A stretch of 64,000 nucleotides of DNA, taken from positions 39,621-103,620 of the IMG/VR virus record IMGVR_UViG_3300017650_000001. One strand, written 5' to 3'. Under the pieces are notes generated by a model. The model was not told where the DNA came from and made no database searches. It saw only the letters and a program-made list of their open reading frames with translations. Positions 32,371 through 45,124 of the stretch are shown here, one piece after another. The stretch comes from a virus. A program made the translations under genes and the position numbers. The stretch's first letter is position 1. The number at the start of each line of letters is the position of its first letter.

Positions 32371-33474
32371 ATGAAAGCAGTTGCGGTGATTGGTGCTGCC
32401 TTTGGTGATGAGGGCAAGGGCTTGATGACAGATTACTTCTGTCGTCAGTATTCCAAACCCCCAATTGTTGTTCGCTACAATGGCGGGGCACAAGCAGGTC
32501 ACACAGTCGTAACTGACAAACGTCGTCATGTGTTCAGTCATATTGGTTCTGGATATTTTACGGGTGCAGATACCTTCCTCAGCAAGTTTTTTCTAGTCAA
32601 TCCCGCAGCATTCCGAATAGAATGTAGCGAGCTTGGGAAGTATACTGAAGGTCGCGTCTACGTGCATCCAAATGCACTTGTTTCAACTGTATACGATTCA
32701 TTTATCAATCAAGAACTTGAAAAGTCACGTGGTGATTCGAGACATGGTTCCTGTGGGATGGGAATCAATGAAACAATTCAACGCAGCAAGGTTGCTGGAT
32801 TTGTTCTTACCGCATCCGACCTTTACGCACACGATCTTATCGATAAAGTTGTTCGGGTGCAGAATTGGGCGCGAATACGTTTGCAACAATGCAATTTGTT
32901 GAACAAAGAAACAGAAGCTTGGATCCGCGACCCTGCTATCACGCGGACATTTATCGATGACTGCCGATCTTTTGCTGACAACGTTCAGTATAGTTCAGGA
33001 ATGGTTCTGAACGGGCGCAATGTAGTCTTTGAAGGAGCTCAAGGACTTTTGCTGGATGCAAACAGTTATTTCTTCCCGCATGTCACCCACAGCTATACGG
33101 GGTTACGGAATATCGTCGCTATTGCTGAAGATCTCGGAATCGATGAAATTGATGCTACTTACGTAATGCGGACTTATCTTACGCGTCATGGAGCAGGACC
33201 GCTCCCGGGGGAAGACTCAAATCTCAACTATCTTGATACAACTAATAACAAGAATGCTTGGCAGGGTAGTTTGCGTTTTGCACGACAAGATAACGAATTG
33301 ATGAGTAAAGCTATTATCAAAGACCTCATCATCAGGAAATATACCACAGTGAAGATCAACCCAGATATTGCGCTTACGCATGTCGATCAAGAAGGGTTTA
33401 TCCCGCGCATCCAGGATGTCCTTGTTAGGTACAATTCAGATGGTCCTACAGCGGATCACGTAGGTAGGTTGTAA
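32371..33474 (+). CDS. Divergent adenylosuccinate synthetase (PurA-like)
   Basis: GAAFGDEGKG, VVRYNGGAQAGHTV, HGSCGMG, FEGAQGLLLD, FFPHVTHS, YLTRHGAGP. Confidence 0.88.
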   Translation: MKAVAVIGAAFGDEGKGLMTDYFCRQYSKPPIVVRYNGGAQAGHTVVTDKRRHVFSHIGSGYFTGADTFLSKFFLVNPAAFRIECSELGKYTEGRVYVHPNALVSTVYDSFINQELEKSRGDSRHGSCGMGINETIQRSKVAGFVLTASDLYAHDLIDKVVRVQNWARIRLQQCNLLNKETEAWIRDPAITRTFIDDCRSFADNVQYSSGMVLNGRNVVFEGAQGLLLDANSYFFPHVTHSYTGLRNIVAIAEDLGIDEIDATYVMRTYLTRHGAGPLPGEDSNLNYLDTTNNKNAWQGSLRFARQDNELMSKAIIKDLIIRKYTTVKINPDIALTHVDQEGFIPRIQDVLVRYNSDGPTADHVGRL

Positions 33475-37038: not shown

Positions 37039-38619
37039 TTAGCTCTTCGCGAACTCGGCCATAATTGCCGGAACCGATGTATCGAAACCAGAAACGTCGA
37101 GCATTCCCGGATCGTTCGGATCTGCAATACTGAAGTTCGTTGCAGCCATACCAACAACGATAAGCTTTGCATTGATTCCCGTAGCCTTGCGGTAGTCTAC
37201 AAGAGCACGAGACGGATGTACACGACCGGCGTAAGTCTCATTGTCGGTCATGACAACGAAGACGTCAACGTTCAAGCCCTGTTCACGAGCGTAGACCATA
37301 GGCAACGAACAATCGGTTGATCCGAAGTTGTTGTCATGAGCCTTCTTCGTGGCTGCCACAAGAGAATCACTTGTATTGATCTTGAGATCACGGAATTGAT
37401 TTGCGAAACCCATGACATGGGTACTCGGTTCCGTATTCAAAGATACAAGTGACAATGCTGCGGTAGCTTCGCAGTAGCTGACGTTCGAATTCGCCATCGA
37501 TGACGACATTGAACCCGAAACGTCCAAGGCAAACAAGAAACGCTTGCCTGTCGGCTGCACGTTCTTGAACGCCTTGTAGAACGCCTTGTCCAGCGCTGCA
37601 ACGATCGGCTGCGACGGAGTCCAGGAATTCCCACCGCGGAAACCACGGCCGGAATTGTAGGTCTTCAGCGCAACCAAGATGTTGAACGGATGCAAGCGTG
37701 ACTTGCGGATCACGTTCTCGTCGCTCAACCGCTGCACAATCAGCGATTCAGCGTCGCTGAGCGGCTTGATCAGACCGATGCGGGTCATATTGGCAAGATT
37801 CCGCATAAGCGCTGTTAGCCCCATCGTCGGTAGCATCGCAGCCCAGTAATCAGGGTCACTGTTGCACTCGGTCGGCAGAGCTTCCCAAGGCAACTTGTAT
37901 TCCTTGATTAGTGCGGTACGGAGCTTCTTGGTCGTCCGTGGATCCATTGCGTTCATGTGTGCCATGACTTGCGGAGGCAACGATGCTTGCGTATGGTCAA
38001 CACCGCGGACCCACTGATAAAGAGCGCGACGCGCTTCGCTGTTGCCAGCATCCGGATGATGCAGCTGATGCACATTCTTGTGCGACCAGCCATTGCGCTC
38101 ACGATACTTGATCATCTGGAACGCGACGTCGTCCACAGACTTGTCATTGTACCACTTACCGATTGCACGATGCAGAGCACGACCACCCTTCCCGCCGCCC
38201 AAAGCCTTGCGAGCTTCGAGGTACTGAAAGAGGTGAGTTGCAGTACGACAGACAGCCGGCAAAGCCGAATGAGCGTACGAGCGTACCTTGACGTCCTTGT
38301 GCGTGCCGCCGATTGCCAATGCGAAGATGGCTGGATCGTTCTTCGGAGCACGGCCTTCCTGCGAAACCGAAACGATCACATCGATCGTCTTGATTGGATT
38401 CTCGTCGAAACACTCCTGAACACAACGTGCATTTTCGCGCGTCAGGTCAGCAGCCTTCTGGTAATAGGTGTTGGAGTCACTTCCAAGGATCAGGAAGCGG
38501 TTGAGGCGGGACCAGATATCGATCGCATAGACGTAGCCGCCGGCGTTGTTCTTTACCTGATTCTTGGTAAGCGGCTGAGTCTGCGGAACTGGCGTAGAGA
38601 TAAGTGATGCATACTTCAT
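37039..38619 (-). CDS. rsr: Ro60/Rsr TROVE-domain RNA-binding protein
   Basis: QVKNNAGGYV, RLNRFLILGS..TYY, KYRER.GWSH, ALMRNL, SRLHPF, vWA LDVSGSM, GSTDCSLPM, TDNET, DPGMLDVSGFD. Confidence 0.96.
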   Translation of the reverse strand: MKYASLISTPVPQTQPLTKNQVKNNAGGYVYAIDIWSRLNRFLILGSDSNTYYQKAADLTRENARCVQECFDENPIKTIDVIVSVSQEGRAPKNDPAIFALAIGGTHKDVKVRSYAHSALPAVCRTATHLFQYLEARKALGGGKGGRALHRAIGKWYNDKSVDDVAFQMIKYRERNGWSHKNVHQLHHPDAGNSEARRALYQWVRGVDHTQASLPPQVMAHMNAMDPRTTKKLRTALIKEYKLPWEALPTECNSDPDYWAAMLPTMGLTALMRNLANMTRIGLIKPLSDAESLIVQRLSDENVIRKSRLHPFNILVALKTYNSGRGFRGGNSWTPSQPIVAALDKAFYKAFKNVQPTGKRFLFALDVSGSMSSSMANSNVSYCEATAALSLVSLNTEPSTHVMGFANQFRDLKINTSDSLVAATKKAHDNNFGSTDCSLPMVYAREQGLNVDVFVVMTDNETYAGRVHPSRALVDYRKATGINAKLIVVGMAATNFSIADPNDPGMLDVSGFDTSVPAIMAEFAKS

Positions 38620-38646: not shown

Positions 38647-38710
38647 GCCTGAGCATAAAGGTCGTAGATCGGGTATATTTTGCCGATAACCGAACTACTG
38701 CAACTCAGGC
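38647..38710 (-). ncRNA. Y RNA-like gene Y1 (minimal, no tRNA module)
   Basis: GCCTGAG-TTG..GTAG-TTCGGTTATC..CGATCTAC..TATG-CTCAGGC; shared scaffold, immediately upstream of ro60. Confidence 0.75.
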
Positions 38711-38721
38711 GACTTCAAGCT

Positions 38722-38824
38722 GCTGAACGTGATTTTGGCATCGGATAAGCTCCCATTTGAGCAGTAATTCCATTCGGAACCACTCGGAGTCGAACCAAGA
38801 TAACCGATAACCATTCAATTCAGC
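38722..38824 (-). ncRNA. YrlA-like Y RNA Y2 (permuted T-AS-D tRNA module)
   Basis: GCTGAA stem, TCGGTTATC, T arm CTTGG-TTCGACT-CCGAG, loop-closed acceptor TGGTTCC-GAAT-GGAATTA, D arm GCTC-AAATGG-GAGC. Confidence 0.8.
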
Positions 38825-38827
38825 GTA

Positions 38828-38991
38828 AGGAGTGTCTTACTAGATTGAGCATGAAATTGAAAATTCGCGTTTAGAGTTGGATTCGAACCAACGTCTCTAG
38901 TCCAAGACTAGCGCACTAACCACTATGCTACCCGTTCAGTTTTGGCGAACGATAACGAAATTTCAGCAACTCAATCTAATAAGACACTCCT
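38828..38991 (-). ncRNA. Y RNA-like gene Y3 (non-permuted D-anticodon-T module)
   Basis: About 22-bp terminal stem AGGAGTGTCTTA.TAGATTGAG, TTCGTTATC, then D arm, CTAGT-CTTGG-ACTAG hairpin, T arm GTTGG-TTCGAAT-CCAAC. Confidence 0.75.
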
Positions 38992-39017
38992 CAGTTTGTA
39001 GCTCACCAAATGGAGAC

Positions 39018-39158
39018 TTGCACGAGCATAAAGGGCGAAGATCGATGTTTGACGTGCTACCATTACACTACAGGCCCGTAAATGTTGGACCCGATGGGAT
39101 TCGAACCCATTCCGCCAGCTTTCAATGCTGATAACCGAACTTCAGTCAACTCGTACAA
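39018..39158 (-). ncRNA. YrlA-like Y RNA Y4
   Basis: TTGTACGAG/CTCGTGCAA stem, GAAGTTCGGTTATC, T arm ATGGG-TTCGAAT-CCCAT, acceptor CGGGTCC-AACATTTAC-GGGCCTG, D arm GTGT-AATGGT-AGCAC. Confidence 0.85.
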
Positions 39159-39167
39159 ATATTCCAG

Positions 39168-39238
39168 AAGGTGAGCGTAAGTGTCGGCAATTGGTGGCAT
39201 CATTAACAGTGATAACCAAAAGCCTTTCAACTCACCCT
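39168..39238 (-). ncRNA. Y RNA-like gene Y5 (minimal)
   Basis: AGGGTGAG-TTG..GGC-TTTTGGTTATC..CCAATTGCC..TACG-CTCACCTT; GCGTATG motif just upstream. Confidence 0.7.
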
Positions 39239-40754: not shown

Positions 40755-40833
40755 TGGCGCTCCTGGAAGGACTTGAACCTCCATAGTTTCCAGTTACGGT
40801 ACTCTGCTTAGGAGGCAGAGCCGGTACAGGAGC
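40755..40833 (-). tRNA. trnR: tRNA-Arg(CCT), non-canonical (no D arm; D-loop-like segment after the anticodon arm)
   Basis: GCTCCTG-TACCGG-CTCTGC-CTCCTAA-GCAGAG-TACCG-TAACTGGAA-ACTAT-T arm-CAGGAGC-G-CCA. Confidence 0.75.
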
Positions 40834-40971
40834 TAAGCAGCTTGAACAGGTGTAGTCAATTTCTTCCGGGCCAAATTCATTCAGGGGTACAAACCTCGTC
40901 ATATGGAGGTCTTCCCATCGCTTGAATAAGTTACATTCACAGCATCTGTTCATGTTAACACATACGCTAAA

Positions 40972-41053
40972 TGGCACCCCGAGCAGGATTCGAACCCGCG
41001 TTTTCAGCTCCTCTACAGATAACTGCTTAGAAGGCAGAACTGGCTACCGGGGC
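40972..41053 (-). tRNA. trnR: tRNA-Arg(TCT), non-canonical
   Basis: GCCCCGG-TAGC-CAG..CTGC-CTTCTAA-GCAG..CTG-TAGAGGA-GC..T arm-G-CCA. Confidence 0.75.
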
Positions 41054-41057
41054 AAAT

Positions 41058-41132
41058 TGGAGGTGTGGGCGGGAGTCTAACCCGCCTATCGCAGTTTTGC
41101 AGACTGGCCCATAAACGCTCTGGCACCACACC
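41058..41132 (-). tRNA. trnC: tRNA-Cys(GCA)
   Basis: Loop CTGCAAA, U73, CCA. Confidence 0.85.
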
Positions 41133-41137
41133 GTAAA

Positions 41138-41212
41138 TGGCTACCCCTGCATGAGTTGAACATGCCTAACCAGTTTCAGAGACTGGCGCCTATACCGCTC
41201 GGCCAAGGGGCA
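41138..41212 (-). tRNA. trnQ: tRNA-Gln(CTG)
   Basis: CCAGT-CTCTGAA-ACTGG; U1-A72; CCA. Confidence 0.9.
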
Positions 41213-41218
41213 ATGAAA

Positions 41219-41293
41219 TGGTCAGGGTAGGGAGTTCCGCCTTCCCACCTCTAGTTCCCGAAACTAGTGCTCTTCTACACGAGCTTTACCCTG
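41219..41293 (-). tRNA. trnP: tRNA-Pro(CGG), aberrant T loop
   Basis: CTAGT-TTCGGGA-ACTAG; C1-G72, A73; CCA. Confidence 0.75.
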
Positions 41294-41301
41294 TTAAATT
41301 C

Positions 41302-41399
41302 TGGTCTTGATAGAGGACTCGACCACGCGCTACCCACCGCAGACTAACACGTTATCCATGCGTCCGCGCCAAAGCCTTGTCCGTCGGCCTCTATCAAGA
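41302..41399 (-). ncRNA. CCA-terminated tRNA-like RNA without a recognisable anticodon arm
   Basis: 12-bp terminal helix TCTTGATAGAGG/CCTCTATCAAGA followed by CCA. Confidence 0.5.
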
Positions 41400-41400
41400 A

Positions 41401-41485
41401 TGGTACCCACGAGGCGAGTCGAACGCCTATTTGCAGCTTCCAGTTACGGTTCCACTGATTCGTAGTCAGGGCCGGCTACGTGGGC
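41401..41485 (-). tRNA. trnR: tRNA-Arg(ACG), non-canonical
   Basis: GCCCACG-TAGC-CGG-CCCTGA-CTACGAA-TCAGTGG-AA-CCG-TAACTGGAA-GC..T arm-A-CCA. Confidence 0.78.
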
Positions 41486-41492
41486 AAAATTC

Positions 41493-41628
41493 TTTGTACG
41501 AGCATAAGGGTCGAAGATCGGTATGGGACCGGAGTTCTACCATTGAACTATCAACGACGCAGCCGTTGAGTTGGATTCGAACCAACATATCCAGTTTGGG
41601 GTAACCAAACTTCTACAACTCGTACAAA
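41493..41628 (-). ncRNA. YrlA-like Y RNA Y6 embedded in the tRNA array
   Basis: TTTGTACGAG/CTCGTACAAA stem as in Y4, GAAGTTTGGTTACC, T arm GTTGG-TTCGAAT-CCAAC, closed acceptor TCAACGGC-TGC-GTCGTTGA, D arm GTTC-AATGGTA-GAAC. Confidence 0.85.
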
Positions 41629-41630
41629 CT

Positions 41631-41705
41631 TGGTGCTGCATAGGGGTTTCGATCCCCTTTCATCTGATTGAGAATCAGACATCCTAGCCACTAGACGAAT
41701 GCAGC
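41631..41705 (-). tRNA. trnE: tRNA-Glu(CTC)
   Basis: TCTGA-TTCTCAA-TCAGA; CCA. Confidence 0.9.
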
Positions 41706-41709
41706 AAAT

Positions 41710-41788
41710 TGGCTCCCAGTCGCGGGATCGAACCGCGCTAATCAGTGGTTAACAGCCACGTCCATGCACCAAGCTCGGATTACTGGGA
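41710..41788 (-). tRNA. trnN: tRNA-Asn(GTT)
   Basis: Loop CTGTTAA; G73; CCA. Confidence 0.85.
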
Positions 41789-41794
41789 ATAAAA

Positions 41795-41866
41795 TGGTGG
41801 AGACAGAGGGTGTTGATCCCTCCCCGCCAATCTTGCAAGGATTAGCTGCGCCCCGGCGCTGTCCCC
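41795..41866 (-). tRNA. trnA: tRNA-Ala(TGC)
   Basis: Loop CTTGCAA; G3-U70; CCA. Confidence 0.85.
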
Positions 41867-41871
41867 ATAAA

Positions 41872-41947
41872 TGGTGCCTAAGCTCCGTTCTGCCCGGAGT
41901 CCTCTAGTTCTTCAGACTAGCGCTTCTACTAAGTTAGCTTCTTAGGC
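41872..41947 (-). tRNA. trnF: tRNA-Phe(GAA)
   Basis: CTAGT-CTGAAGA-ACTAG; T loop GGCAGAA; CCA. Confidence 0.82.
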
Positions 41948-42016
41948 ATGATTTCTGAGCATTCCCAATTACGGAGGTTGCTCCTATCCGGTACCTGCTT
42001 TTCAGCGTTCATGAAA

Positions 42017-42090
42017 TGGTGCGGGCACGGGGAGTCGAACCCCGGCTGGAAGTGTGGCACACTTCCCGACTTCCGTAATCTTTTACCCGC
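42017..42090 (-). tRNA. trnG: tRNA-Gly(GCC)
   Basis: GAAGT-GTGCCAC-ACTTC; CCA. Confidence 0.85.
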
Positions 42091-42095
42091 ATAAA

Positions 42096-42187
42096 TGGTG
42101 GGAAGTGGGATGAGTTGAACACCTTGCCACATAGGGACCTGATTTACAGTCAGGCGACAGAACCGTCCGTCCTTATTAGCACTTCCC
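42096..42187 (-). tRNA. trnY: tRNA-Tyr(GTA), extended acceptor/D connector
   Basis: CCTGA-CTGTAAA-TCAGG; CCA. Confidence 0.8.
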
Positions 42188-42283
42188 ATGAATTAAATTG
42201 CCGGTGTACACGCCTTCACTATAGAACAATAGATTCAGTTCTGCAGAACATCCTCTAGCTACAGTCCATCGACCCGGCAAACT

Positions 42284-42365
42284 TGGGAGCGGGAGGTGGA
42301 TTTGAACCACCGTCTACTGGTTATGAGCCAGTCAAGAGGCCTGTTTACCGCTTCTCCATCCCGCA
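42284..42365 (-). tRNA. tRNA-CAT, initiator-like
   Basis: TGCGGGATGGAGAAGCGG 5' end, 1-72 mismatch, ACTGG-CTCATAA-CCAGT. Confidence 0.78.
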
Positions 42366-42555
42366 CAAAAACGTTGCAGGGCTTTTCATCTCCCATGCTC
42401 ATTCATCAGTACATCCGTGAGTGAATGGAAACACGCTGGTTGGGCTTGAGTACCAGCGTAAGTGCAGTAGTGTAGATATGCGATCATTCTACCTTACCCA
42501 ACTCGTTAGGATCGCCCTCGGAGTGACTACTGCAAAAGCTACATACGCAACTAAA

Positions 42556-42643
42556 TGGCGGAGAGCTGAGGAGTCGAACCCCTAACGGTTTCCCGTTCCA
42601 CGGTTTTCAAGACCGCTGACACACCACTGCGTCTTAACTCTCC
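42556..42643 (-). tRNA. trnS: tRNA-Ser(TGA)
   Basis: GCGGT-CTTGAAA-ACCGT, long variable arm, G73, CCA. Confidence 0.9.
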
Positions 42644-42648
42644 AAACT

Positions 42649-42729
42649 TGGCGACCACGGCAGGATTCGAACCCGCATTTACATCCGGTTACCTTGATCT
42701 CCGTTCGAAGCGGAGTGGGATACGTGGTC
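42649..42729 (-). tRNA. trnR: tRNA-Arg(TCG), non-canonical
   Basis: GACCACG-TATCCCA-CTCCG-CTTCGAA-CGGAG-ATCAAGG-TAACCGGA-TGTAAAT-T arm-G-CCA. Confidence 0.75.
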
Positions 42730-44684: not shown

Positions 44685-44865
44685 TTAGCAGCCCTACCGT
44701 TGCTTTCGCATATTGGAGGGAATCGAACCCTCACTTCGGAGTTATCCGCGTTCTCCCATTGAACTACAATACCGGTAGAAGCGTCTACTGAACTCAGTGT
44801 ATATGCGCTATGTAAGGCCTTACATAGCAATACAGGGACCGAGACTTCGACTAACGGACTGCTAA
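44685..44865 (-). ncRNA. Structured RNA with an embedded anticodon-less tRNA module
   Basis: TTAGCAG/CTGCTAA terminal stem; internal D arm GTTC-AATGGGA-GAAC, CGGA-TAAC-TCCG, T arm GAGGG-TTCGATT-CCCTC; no CCA. Confidence 0.6.
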
Positions 44866-44867
44866 CT

Positions 44868-44952
44868 TGGTGTCGACGCGGGGATTTGAACCCCGAAAGC
44901 TACCGATTTTAAGCCGGCATCGTGTGCCTATTCCGAATTAAGCCACGTCGAC
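44868..44952 (-). tRNA. trnL: tRNA-Leu(TAA), short variable loop, long connector
   Basis: CCGG-CTTAAAA-TCGG; A73; CCA. Confidence 0.8.
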
Positions 44953-44957
44953 AAAAT

Positions 44958-45033
44958 TGGTACGCGTCCGGGGACTTGAACCCCGACTGTGCTCCTTTTG
45001 AGAGAGTTGCCTCTACCGTTGGGCTAGACGCGC
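44958..45033 (-). tRNA. trnL: tRNA-Leu(CAA), short variable loop
   Basis: Loop CTCAAAA; CCA. Confidence 0.85.
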
Positions 45034-45039
45034 ATAAGA

Positions 45040-45124
45040 TGGTACGGTCGGGGAGACTCGAACTCCCAAAACCACGGAGTCTAAATCCGCAAGCTGTGCC
45101 AATTCGCTACAAGGTCACGACCGC
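45040..45124 (-). tRNA. trnL: tRNA-Leu(TAG), short variable loop, long connector
   Basis: GCGGA-TTTAGAC-TCCGT; CCA. Confidence 0.8.

Follow-up and report, generated by a model that had tools for sequence, protein, structure and literature searches.

To our knowledge, textbooks treat the order of the cloverleaf arms as universal outside mitochondria. Exceptions at the level of the gene exist in the red alga Cyanidioschyzon merolae, where circularly permuted tRNA genes are processed into normal tRNAs. Among non-standard tRNAs themselves are the D-armless mitochondrial molecules, such as metazoan tRNA-Ser(AGY) and the minimal tRNAs of nematodes and mites (PMC2797822, PMC4394434), and the allo-tRNAs, with their 8/4 or 9/3 acceptor/T branches, which were mined from sequence data (PMC5389517). 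Here, we describe four tRNA-Arg genes that match none of these, in a 64,000 nt stretch of viral DNA (hereafter the window) corresponding to bases 39621–103620 of the IMG/VR virus record IMGVR_UViG_3300017650_000001; the record is 103,620 bp long, has direct terminal repeats and is rated 100 % complete. In all four genes, the D-loop and one strand of the D stem appear 3′ of the anticodon arm instead of 5′ of it. Judged from sequence and covariation, these rewired genes probably encode working arginine tRNAs in which the connectivity of the core is permuted.

The outer parts of the four genes are those of an ordinary tRNA. Each has a 7 bp acceptor stem; an anticodon arm with a 5 bp stem, a 7 nt loop, U33 and a purine at position 37; a T arm with a 5 bp stem, a 7 nt loop of the GTTCRA type and the pair G53:C61; and an encoded CCA. 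The anticodons are CCT, TCT, ACG and TCG, and the discriminator bases, in the same order, are G, G, A and G. It is the internal order that differs. Read from 5′ to 3′, the acceptor stem is followed by U8 and A9, one or two further bases and a strand of two or three bases, and then directly by the anticodon arm. On the 3′ side of that arm stand two to five unpaired bases, the complement of the two- to three-base strand, and a loop of the form U-A-R-(Y)-Y-G-G-A; a linker of 5–9 nt then leads into the normal T arm, the 3′ strand of the acceptor stem, the discriminator and CCA. No D hairpin lies between position 9 and the anticodon stem in any of the four genes. A first-pass annotation, made from the sequence alone, had already recognized the genes, their coordinates, the acceptor, anticodon and T arms, the CCA ends and the four mini-helices with D-loop-like motifs after them, and all of these were recovered, on the minus strand (Table 1). 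Its description of the genes as having ‘no D arm’ holds for the usual place, but is imprecise, because the mini-helix and the relocated loop together resemble a D arm rebuilt from two strands.

Standard gene finders deal poorly with this arrangement. ARAGORN called 24 tRNAs in the window, with no Arg among them and none of the four genes found, as had been predicted. The Rfam tRNA model, RF00005, scored the CCU and UCG genes at 36.1 and 36.5 bits and the UCU gene at 27.8 bits, against a gathering cut-off of 29 bits, and gave no hit to ACG; in its alignments of the genes that were hit, the D arm is deleted and 17–19 additional bases are placed in the variable region. A covariance model of the rewired fold, R1, was built from seven relatives together with the four window genes, which are, therefore, part of its training set. 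R1 scored the four Arg genes at 67–90 bits and no other tRNA in the window above 32 bits; the corresponding values in five other viral records were 66–91 bits for members of the family and no more than 34 for other tRNAs. The earlier suggestion that the fold is specific to arginine stands within the window by this measure, but does not extend to the whole family, which includes rewired tRNA-Ile genes in two loci (L199 and L332) and in Streptomyces phage Mildred21.

Covariation among relatives supports the proposal that the genes represent a conserved alternative tRNA layout rather than decay. A first search pattern taken from the shared loop gave 39 matches, of which seven were real relatives and the rest mostly chance matches in open reading frames (ORFs). 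Four further scans of viral contigs fixed solely the anticodon loop, the D-loop motif (TAAC/TAG..GGA) and GTTC, leaving the mini-helix free, and the parser demanded pairing in the acceptor, T and anticodon stems but not in the mini-helix. Among the matches listed, the rewired Arg family comprises at least 158 distinct genes in at least 137 loci, and the family statistics given here refer to those 158 genes. The mini-helix columns were anchored on the acceptor end and the U13-A14 motif only, a procedure blind to structure, and the resulting mutual-information matrix contained just two strong cells, of 1.29 and 1.15 bits, which fell on mini-helix pairs 1 and 2. Pair 1, between the ninth base before the anticodon loop and the base just before U13, is paired in 100 % of genes (CG 114, AT 20, GC 15, TA 9), and pair 2 in 98.7 % (CG 87, GC 47, TA 15, AT 7). 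With shuffled partners, pairing reached at most 70 % for pair 1 and 60 % for pair 2, and slid registers gave 35–50 %. The CGG/CCG, CAG/CTG and CC/GG mini-helices of the window are ordinary members of this series. A plain MAFFT alignment, built from 60 diverse members, showed 88 % pairing in the mini-helix and double changes numbering 13 and 24, whilst the acceptor, anticodon and T helices were 92–100 % paired; the acceptor pairs were 99 % paired with covariation, and the pair closing the T loop was G:C in 60 of 60. An encoded CCA is present in 129 of the 158 genes.

A second signal links the relocated loop to the body of the molecule. The last base before the T stem, which the scans for G15 variants had left free, covaries with position 15: A15 is accompanied by T48 in 138 of 138 genes, and G15 by C48 in 15 of 20 (T in two, G in three; Fisher p about 4e-17). 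Within the window, the UCU gene has G15:C48, and CCU, ACG and UCG have A15:T48. The pattern is that of the R15:Y48 Levitt pair, which suggests that the relocated loop sits at the normal D-loop site.

These two signals bear on whether the genes are simply D-armless tRNAs of the mitochondrial type, with a long unstructured variable region in which both the mini-helix and the likeness to a D-loop would be fortuitous. Such a molecule would account for the deleted D arm and the 17–19 nt variable insertion in the Rfam alignments, and for the output of RNAalifold on 60 relatives, which contained three helices only (acceptor, anticodon and T) and no D hairpin. However, it would leave unexplained the perfect covariation of the dinucleotide that follows position 22 with the one that precedes U13-A14, the covariation of position 15 with the last base ahead of the T stem, the retention of the G18G19 motif, and a loop core identical to that of the D-loops in canonical Arg tRNAs of related phages, and we consider it very unlikely. 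The rejection of the four genes by gene finders would also be expected of decaying pseudogenes or assembly artefacts. This explanation deserves almost no credence: it is refuted by the compensatory changes in every helix across at least 158 distinct sequences in at least 137 loci, and members are present in cultured phages with finished genomes and in sequenced isolates of Bradyrhizobium.

Two other pairing schemes were considered for the conserved layout and rejected. In the first, G18G19 in the relocated loop would pair with the 5′ CC or CGG, which is at odds with the invariance of G18G19 and with the covariation of the 5′ bases with the bases before U13. A self-contained hairpin 3′ of the anticodon arm, akin to a class II variable arm, can be drawn in one divergent member (L032) and is absent from the family, for which RNAalifold predicts no such helix; the bases ahead of the loop pair with the 5′ side instead.

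Two architectures coexist in this one genome: CCU and UCG are of a simple type, and UCU and ACG of a type that we call B. The UCG layout, with its 2 bp CC/GG mini-helix and internal loop, is the commonest in the family. The type B subtype, with 16 members, has one additional base on the 5′ side and a 9 nt linker, NN-TGMAAAY, and an outer 2 bp helix, H1, forms between the dinucleotide that follows A9 and the one that follows the relocated loop. H1 covaries in 15 of the 16 members (GC/GC in seven, GT/AC in five and AC/GT in three); the sixteenth, CC/GT, represents a register slip from one additional base. In UCU and ACG, H1 is GC/GC, a feature additional to those first noted, and it encloses the mini-helix, the anticodon arm and the D-loop.

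We propose that the rewired genes reflect a block swap, in which the block formed by the 10–12 strand, U13 and the D-loop (14–21) would have traded places with block 22–45, comprising the other strand of the D stem and the anticodon arm. The chain order would then be 1–9, 22–45, 10–21, 46–76, equivalent to a circular permutation of the internal segment 10–45 at 21/22. In a first parse, 123 of 127 genes had exactly 12 nt from the acceptor stem to the anticodon loop, a segment that fits U8, A9, 22–26 and 27–31 of a standard tRNA. After the anticodon stem come 44 and 45 with extra bases, three bases (10–12), U13 A14 R15 Y Y G18 G19 A20, and three to eight bases ending in Y48. On this mapping, the mini-helix would be the D stem, rebuilt from two strands flanking the anticodon arm, and the relocated loop would supply A14 to U8, R15 to Y48, G18G19 to the T loop and A20 to arginyl-tRNA synthetase (ArgRS). 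In the standard tRNA structure, position 9 lies against pair 12:23, position 45 against pair 10:25, and position 21 near 46–48, so that the three new junctions join bases that are already spatial neighbours. The connectivity and the covariation suggest that the usual L shape can form, and that the molecule could be processed, charged and decoded, with ArgRS, EF-Tu and the ribosome able to use it. Tandem duplication of 10–45, followed by loss of both ends, could have yielded the permuted order.

The arginine determinants of bacteria are A20, C35, G/U36 and A/G73 (PMC9976931). When the base after the relocated GG is counted as position 20, this set is present in all four window genes, in agreement with the earlier reading that each relocated loop keeps GG-A and each discriminator is A or G. 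Bacterial ArgRS reads A20, whereas isoleucyl-tRNA synthetase reads U20/U21 (PMC9976931), and the three rewired tRNA-Ile genes have T at position 20. On three Ile examples, then, the fold has turned up for two amino acids whose synthetases both read this position of the D-loop.

It could also be imagined that the transcripts are precursors whose segments are cleaved and rejoined in the normal order, much as the permuted tRNA genes of C. merolae give rise to normal tRNAs. Here, though, the acceptor ends are already terminal, and what would be needed is not circularization but transposition of an internal block, with three junctions. No RNA ligase or splicing endonuclease was found among the ten neighbouring ORFs scanned. 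The mini-helix covaries in the rewired register, which argues that the RNA is selected as encoded, and religation seems to us highly improbable.

Several points weigh against the view that the genes encode functional, block-swapped tRNAs. The mini-helix is only 2–3 bp long, with the third pair matched in 58 % of the family, and it is not predicted by RNAalifold or by most single-sequence folds; RNAalifold misses it because the helix is too short for its energy model. Outside the window, conservation of the parts fixed by the search patterns (the anticodon loop, the D-loop motif including A20, and GTTC) is circular, and the family statistics ignore kinship among genes. The discriminator varies across the family (G 70, T 42, A 41, C 5). 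A pure block swap does not account for the outer helix in UCU and ACG, and connectivity is the basis for the proposed three-dimensional equivalence. When the block was returned to its usual place in silico, ARAGORN called 157 of 158 genes as tRNA-Arg with the right anticodon, compared with 0 of 158 before, but many of the 158 controls were called too: 116–120 when the block was shuffled, 104 when a stem strand could not pair and 108 when the block boundaries were misplaced. The un-swap result adds little weight, because ARAGORN accepts most 11 nt insertions, as these 104–120 calls among 158 controls indicate. Positions 26 and 44, which are paired in the CCU gene, pair in 15 % of the family only.

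Table 1. Rewired tRNA-Arg genes and their internal elements (coordinates are those of the window)
Feature	Position	Strand	Remarks
tRNA-Arg(CCU), rewired	40755..40833	−	79 nt with CCA; simple type; 12 nt from acceptor stem to anticodon loop; R1 90.1 bits
CCU mini-helix, 5′ strand CGG	40821..40823	−	Proposed equivalent of positions 23–25
CCU mini-helix, 3′ strand CCG	40797..40799	−	Proposed equivalent of positions 10–12
CCU relocated D-loop, U13 A14 A15 C U G18 G19 A20 A	40788..40796	−	AACTGGA core as in canonical Arg D-loops of G004 and G005
tRNA-Arg(UCU), rewired	40972..41053	−	82 nt with CCA; type B (outer helix H1 present); R1 66.9 bits
UCU outer helix H1, 5′ strand GC	41043..41044	−	H1 covariation
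UCU mini-helix, 5′ strand CAG	41040..41042	−	Mini-helix covariation
UCU mini-helix, 3′ strand CTG	41016..41018	−	Mini-helix covariation
UCU relocated D-loop with G15	41009..41015	−	C at 41000, just ahead of the T stem, makes a G15:C48 pair
UCU outer helix H1, 3′ strand GC	41007..41008	−	H1 covariation
tRNA-Arg(ACG), rewired	41401..41485	−	85 nt with CCA; type B; missed by ARAGORN and Rfam; R1 81.9 bits
ACG outer helix H1, 5′ strand GC	41475..41476	−	H1 covariation
ACG mini-helix, 5′ strand CGG	41472..41474	−	Pairs with CCG
ACG mini-helix, 3′ strand CCG	41447..41449	−	Pairs with CGG
ACG relocated D-loop	41438..41446	−	
ACG outer helix H1, 3′ strand GC	41436..41437	−	H1 covariation
tRNA-Arg(UCG), rewired	42649..42729	−	81 nt with CCA; 2 bp CC/GG mini-helix and internal loop; R1 76.4 bits
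UCG mini-helix, 5′ strand CC	42718..42719	−	Mini-helix covariation
UCG mini-helix, 3′ strand GG	42692..42693	−	Mini-helix covariation
UCG relocated D-loop	42684..42691	−	

The four genes lie in a tRNA array. This array occupies about 38.3–45.5 kb of the window on the minus strand, and a scan of the complete 103,620 bp genome with RF00005 confined tRNAs to this region and found no cloverleaf tRNA-Arg anywhere, which bears out, and extends to the whole genome, the observation that the array lacks a canonical tRNA-Arg. The spacers flanking the four genes are 4–8 nt long, and these spacers and the encoded CCA are the same as those of neighbouring tRNAs in the array. With the four genes included, the array covers all 20 amino acids; without them, arginine alone is missing. 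All six Arg codons are present in the codon usage of the phage, accounting for 5.9 % of codons, and the anticodons CCU, UCU, ACG and UCG, which belong to its only Arg tRNAs, jointly read all six.

This completeness is relevant to the possibility that the genes encode mimics of tRNA-Arg, transcribed and L-shaped but unused in translation, that serve as decoys for host anticodon nucleases or other tRNA-binding factors, or as partners in the Ro60/Y RNA system of the phage. The neighbourhood lends the idea some substance, as the array adjoins both a Ro60 gene and a number of Y-RNA-like genes that carry tRNA-like modules, and itself holds other tRNA-like RNAs without a usable anticodon. A decoy, however, needs neither a covarying 7 bp acceptor stem, a CCA end (encoded in 129 of 158 relatives) and A20, nor anticodons for all six Arg codons. 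Nor would decoys explain why an otherwise complete tRNA set lacks arginine alone when these genes are discounted, or why, in related arrays, a rewired ACG completes the set formed with cloverleaf CCU, UCU and CCG. We regard mimicry as unlikely, and favour the interpretation of the genes as working arginine tRNAs.

The array and its surroundings hold further unusual elements. The phage Ro60 gene encodes TROVE plus Ro60 vWA domains, and lies beside several Y-RNA-like genes with tRNA-like modules (window 37039–38619 on the minus strand, 38647–39238 and 41493–41628). Weak matches to the Y RNA family RF02553 were found at 41534–41587 and 39047–39117, and one Y-RNA-like copy is located inside the tRNA array, adjoining Arg(ACG). 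The Leu tRNAs are also odd (44958–45033, 45040–45124 and 44868–44952, all on the minus strand): Leu(CAA), at 76 nt, has a short variable loop and, hence, a class I shape, and Leu(UAG) and Leu(UAA), both missed by ARAGORN, have additional bases 5′ of the anticodon arm and no long variable arm, a layout that may represent a second kind of rewiring. The minus strand of the array also carries a 97 nt element (41302–41398) with an 11 bp closing stem, an ACCA end, a T-loop-like TCGAGT and no recognizable cloverleaf; a cloverleaf tRNA-Pro(CGG) (41219–41293) with the unusual T loop GGCGGAA, missed by ARAGORN; and a tRNA-like module (44706–44773; Rfam 43.5 bits) with good D and T arms, but without an anticodon loop or CCA. 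Outside the array, the ORF at 32371–33474 on the plus strand encodes a homologue of adenylosuccinate synthetase (Pfam PF00709), with the PurZ-like family phrog_1211 as its best PHROG match; judging from this similarity, adenine in the phage DNA may be replaced by 2-aminoadenine.

Related arrays differ in how many of their Arg genes are rewired. The complete 96 kb viral record G005 has the array order of the window; ACG is its one rewired Arg gene, and CCU, UCU and CCG are cloverleaves. In another viral record, G004, a rewired Arg(UCU) (L044:1501-1579) and a cloverleaf Arg(UCU) (L044:2380-2453) lie about 880 bp apart; their acceptor stems are nearly identical, and their T stems and D-loop cores identical, whilst the D and anticodon stems are different. 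From the sequences, this pair could be the product of recent conversion or of partial gene conversion. A search of bacterial species genomes gave 16 pattern matches, 12 of which were real rewired ACG genes. Seven of these 12 loci, four of them from Bradyrhizobium, were scanned with ARAGORN, and six of the seven hold arrays of 13–22 tRNA genes. The four chromosomal arrays of Bradyrhizobium (L424, L425, L428 and L429) share the gene order of the window, with only ACG rewired; cloverleaf Arg(CCU) and Arg(UCU) are present in L424 and L429, and cloverleaf Arg(CCG) in L424, L425 and L428. Two of the Bradyrhizobium arrays contain a Ro60 homologue, and one is up to 93 % identical to the window over short stretches. 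This synteny points to an alphaproteobacterial host or to a shared mobile module, and the presence of rewired ACG genes in bacterial chromosomal arrays means that the class extends beyond free phages. At the extreme stand the window phage and its relative L025, in which the syntenic CCU and UCU genes are rewired as well.

Members also occur, without annotation, in cultured phages. Microbacterium phage Pumpernickel carries a rewired Arg(UCU) (L418:1464-1543, at about 100456–100535 of NC_073468.1; R1 73 bits), and 37 Streptomyces phage records contain a match, one of which, Mildred21, was checked with R1. The gene in Mildred21 is a rewired Ile(GAU) (L435:597-676, at about 73703–73782 of NC_042008.1) that scores only 38 bits, has no encoded CCA and directly follows a phage gene for tRNA nucleotidyltransferase. 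Megablast of the window region against cultured phages gave no match, nor did the CCU gene alone, and a distant blastn search of the region matched ordinary tRNAs and nothing else. A full-text literature search found no description of the block-swapped layout, although its coverage was incomplete and earlier reports are possible.

If the genes work as we propose, a differently threaded tRNA core is acceptable to bacterial RNase P, to the CCA and modification enzymes, and to ArgRS, EF-Tu and the ribosome, and a complete phage genome depends on such tRNAs for one whole amino acid. The first-pass annotation had raised possible resistance to toxins that target tRNA-Arg. One idea, which we put forward as an improbable one, is that the rewiring protects: a host defence nuclease, or a host-shutoff enzyme of the phage, might recognize the ordinary D arm or core of a cloverleaf tRNA-Arg and not the rewired form. 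Arrays with one rewired ACG and three cloverleaf Arg genes might then be an earlier stage of a takeover, a suggestion that we hold just as tentatively. Rewired genes cause tRNA finders to under-count the tRNAs of phages and arrays, as ARAGORN missed four of four here and the members checked in cultured phages were unannotated; analyses of phage codon coverage can, therefore, wrongly report Arg or Ile decoders as absent. The block-swapped layout also offers a natural template for orthogonal tRNA engineering, and lets one ask how far individual tRNA contacts are tied to the connectivity of the backbone. Carriers available in culture are Microbacterium phage Pumpernickel, Samistivirus phages of Streptomyces and Bradyrhizobium isolates, among them Bradyrhizobium embrapense SEMIA 6208.

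The closest known relatives of the rewired genes are canonical class I tRNA-Arg molecules (RF00005), for example the cloverleaf Arg(CCU) of G005 (L043:1109-1185) and the cloverleaf Arg(UCU) of G004. The two kinds have in common the acceptor stem, anticodon arm, T arm, CCA, U8, A14, R15:Y48, G18G19, A20 and overall length, and the D-loop core AACTGGA is identical in the canonical Arg tRNAs of G004 and G005 and in rewired genes. They part company in the placement of the 5′ strand of the D stem and the D-loop, which in the rewired genes lie 3′ of the anticodon arm, with the D stem closing around that arm. The permuted genes of C. merolae likewise depart from the textbook order of segments, but there the whole gene is permuted and the order is later restored, whereas the window genes have their acceptor strands at both ends, followed by CCA, with only the internal segment 10–45 permuted, and bear no sign that the normal order is restored.

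Like the window genes, D-armless mitochondrial tRNAs lack a hairpin where the D arm would normally stand, and are missed by cloverleaf-based gene finders. They are shorter, however, and have lost the D-loop together with the contact between G18G19 and the T loop, whereas the genes described here are of normal length, belong to bacteria and phages, and keep the parts of the D arm in a new position. Y RNAs of the YrlA type (RF02553), copies of which are found in the window array, also have a tRNA-like elbow built with non-standard strand connectivity; these RNAs bind Ro60 and lack a decoding anticodon arm and CCA, unlike the four window genes, whose decoding and acceptor ends are complete. Lastly, allo-tRNAs are likewise natural, non-standard tRNAs mined from bacterial and phage sequences. 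In allo-tRNAs, the cloverleaf order is kept and the helix lengths are changed; in the rewired tRNA-Arg genes, the helix lengths are standard and it is the order that has changed.

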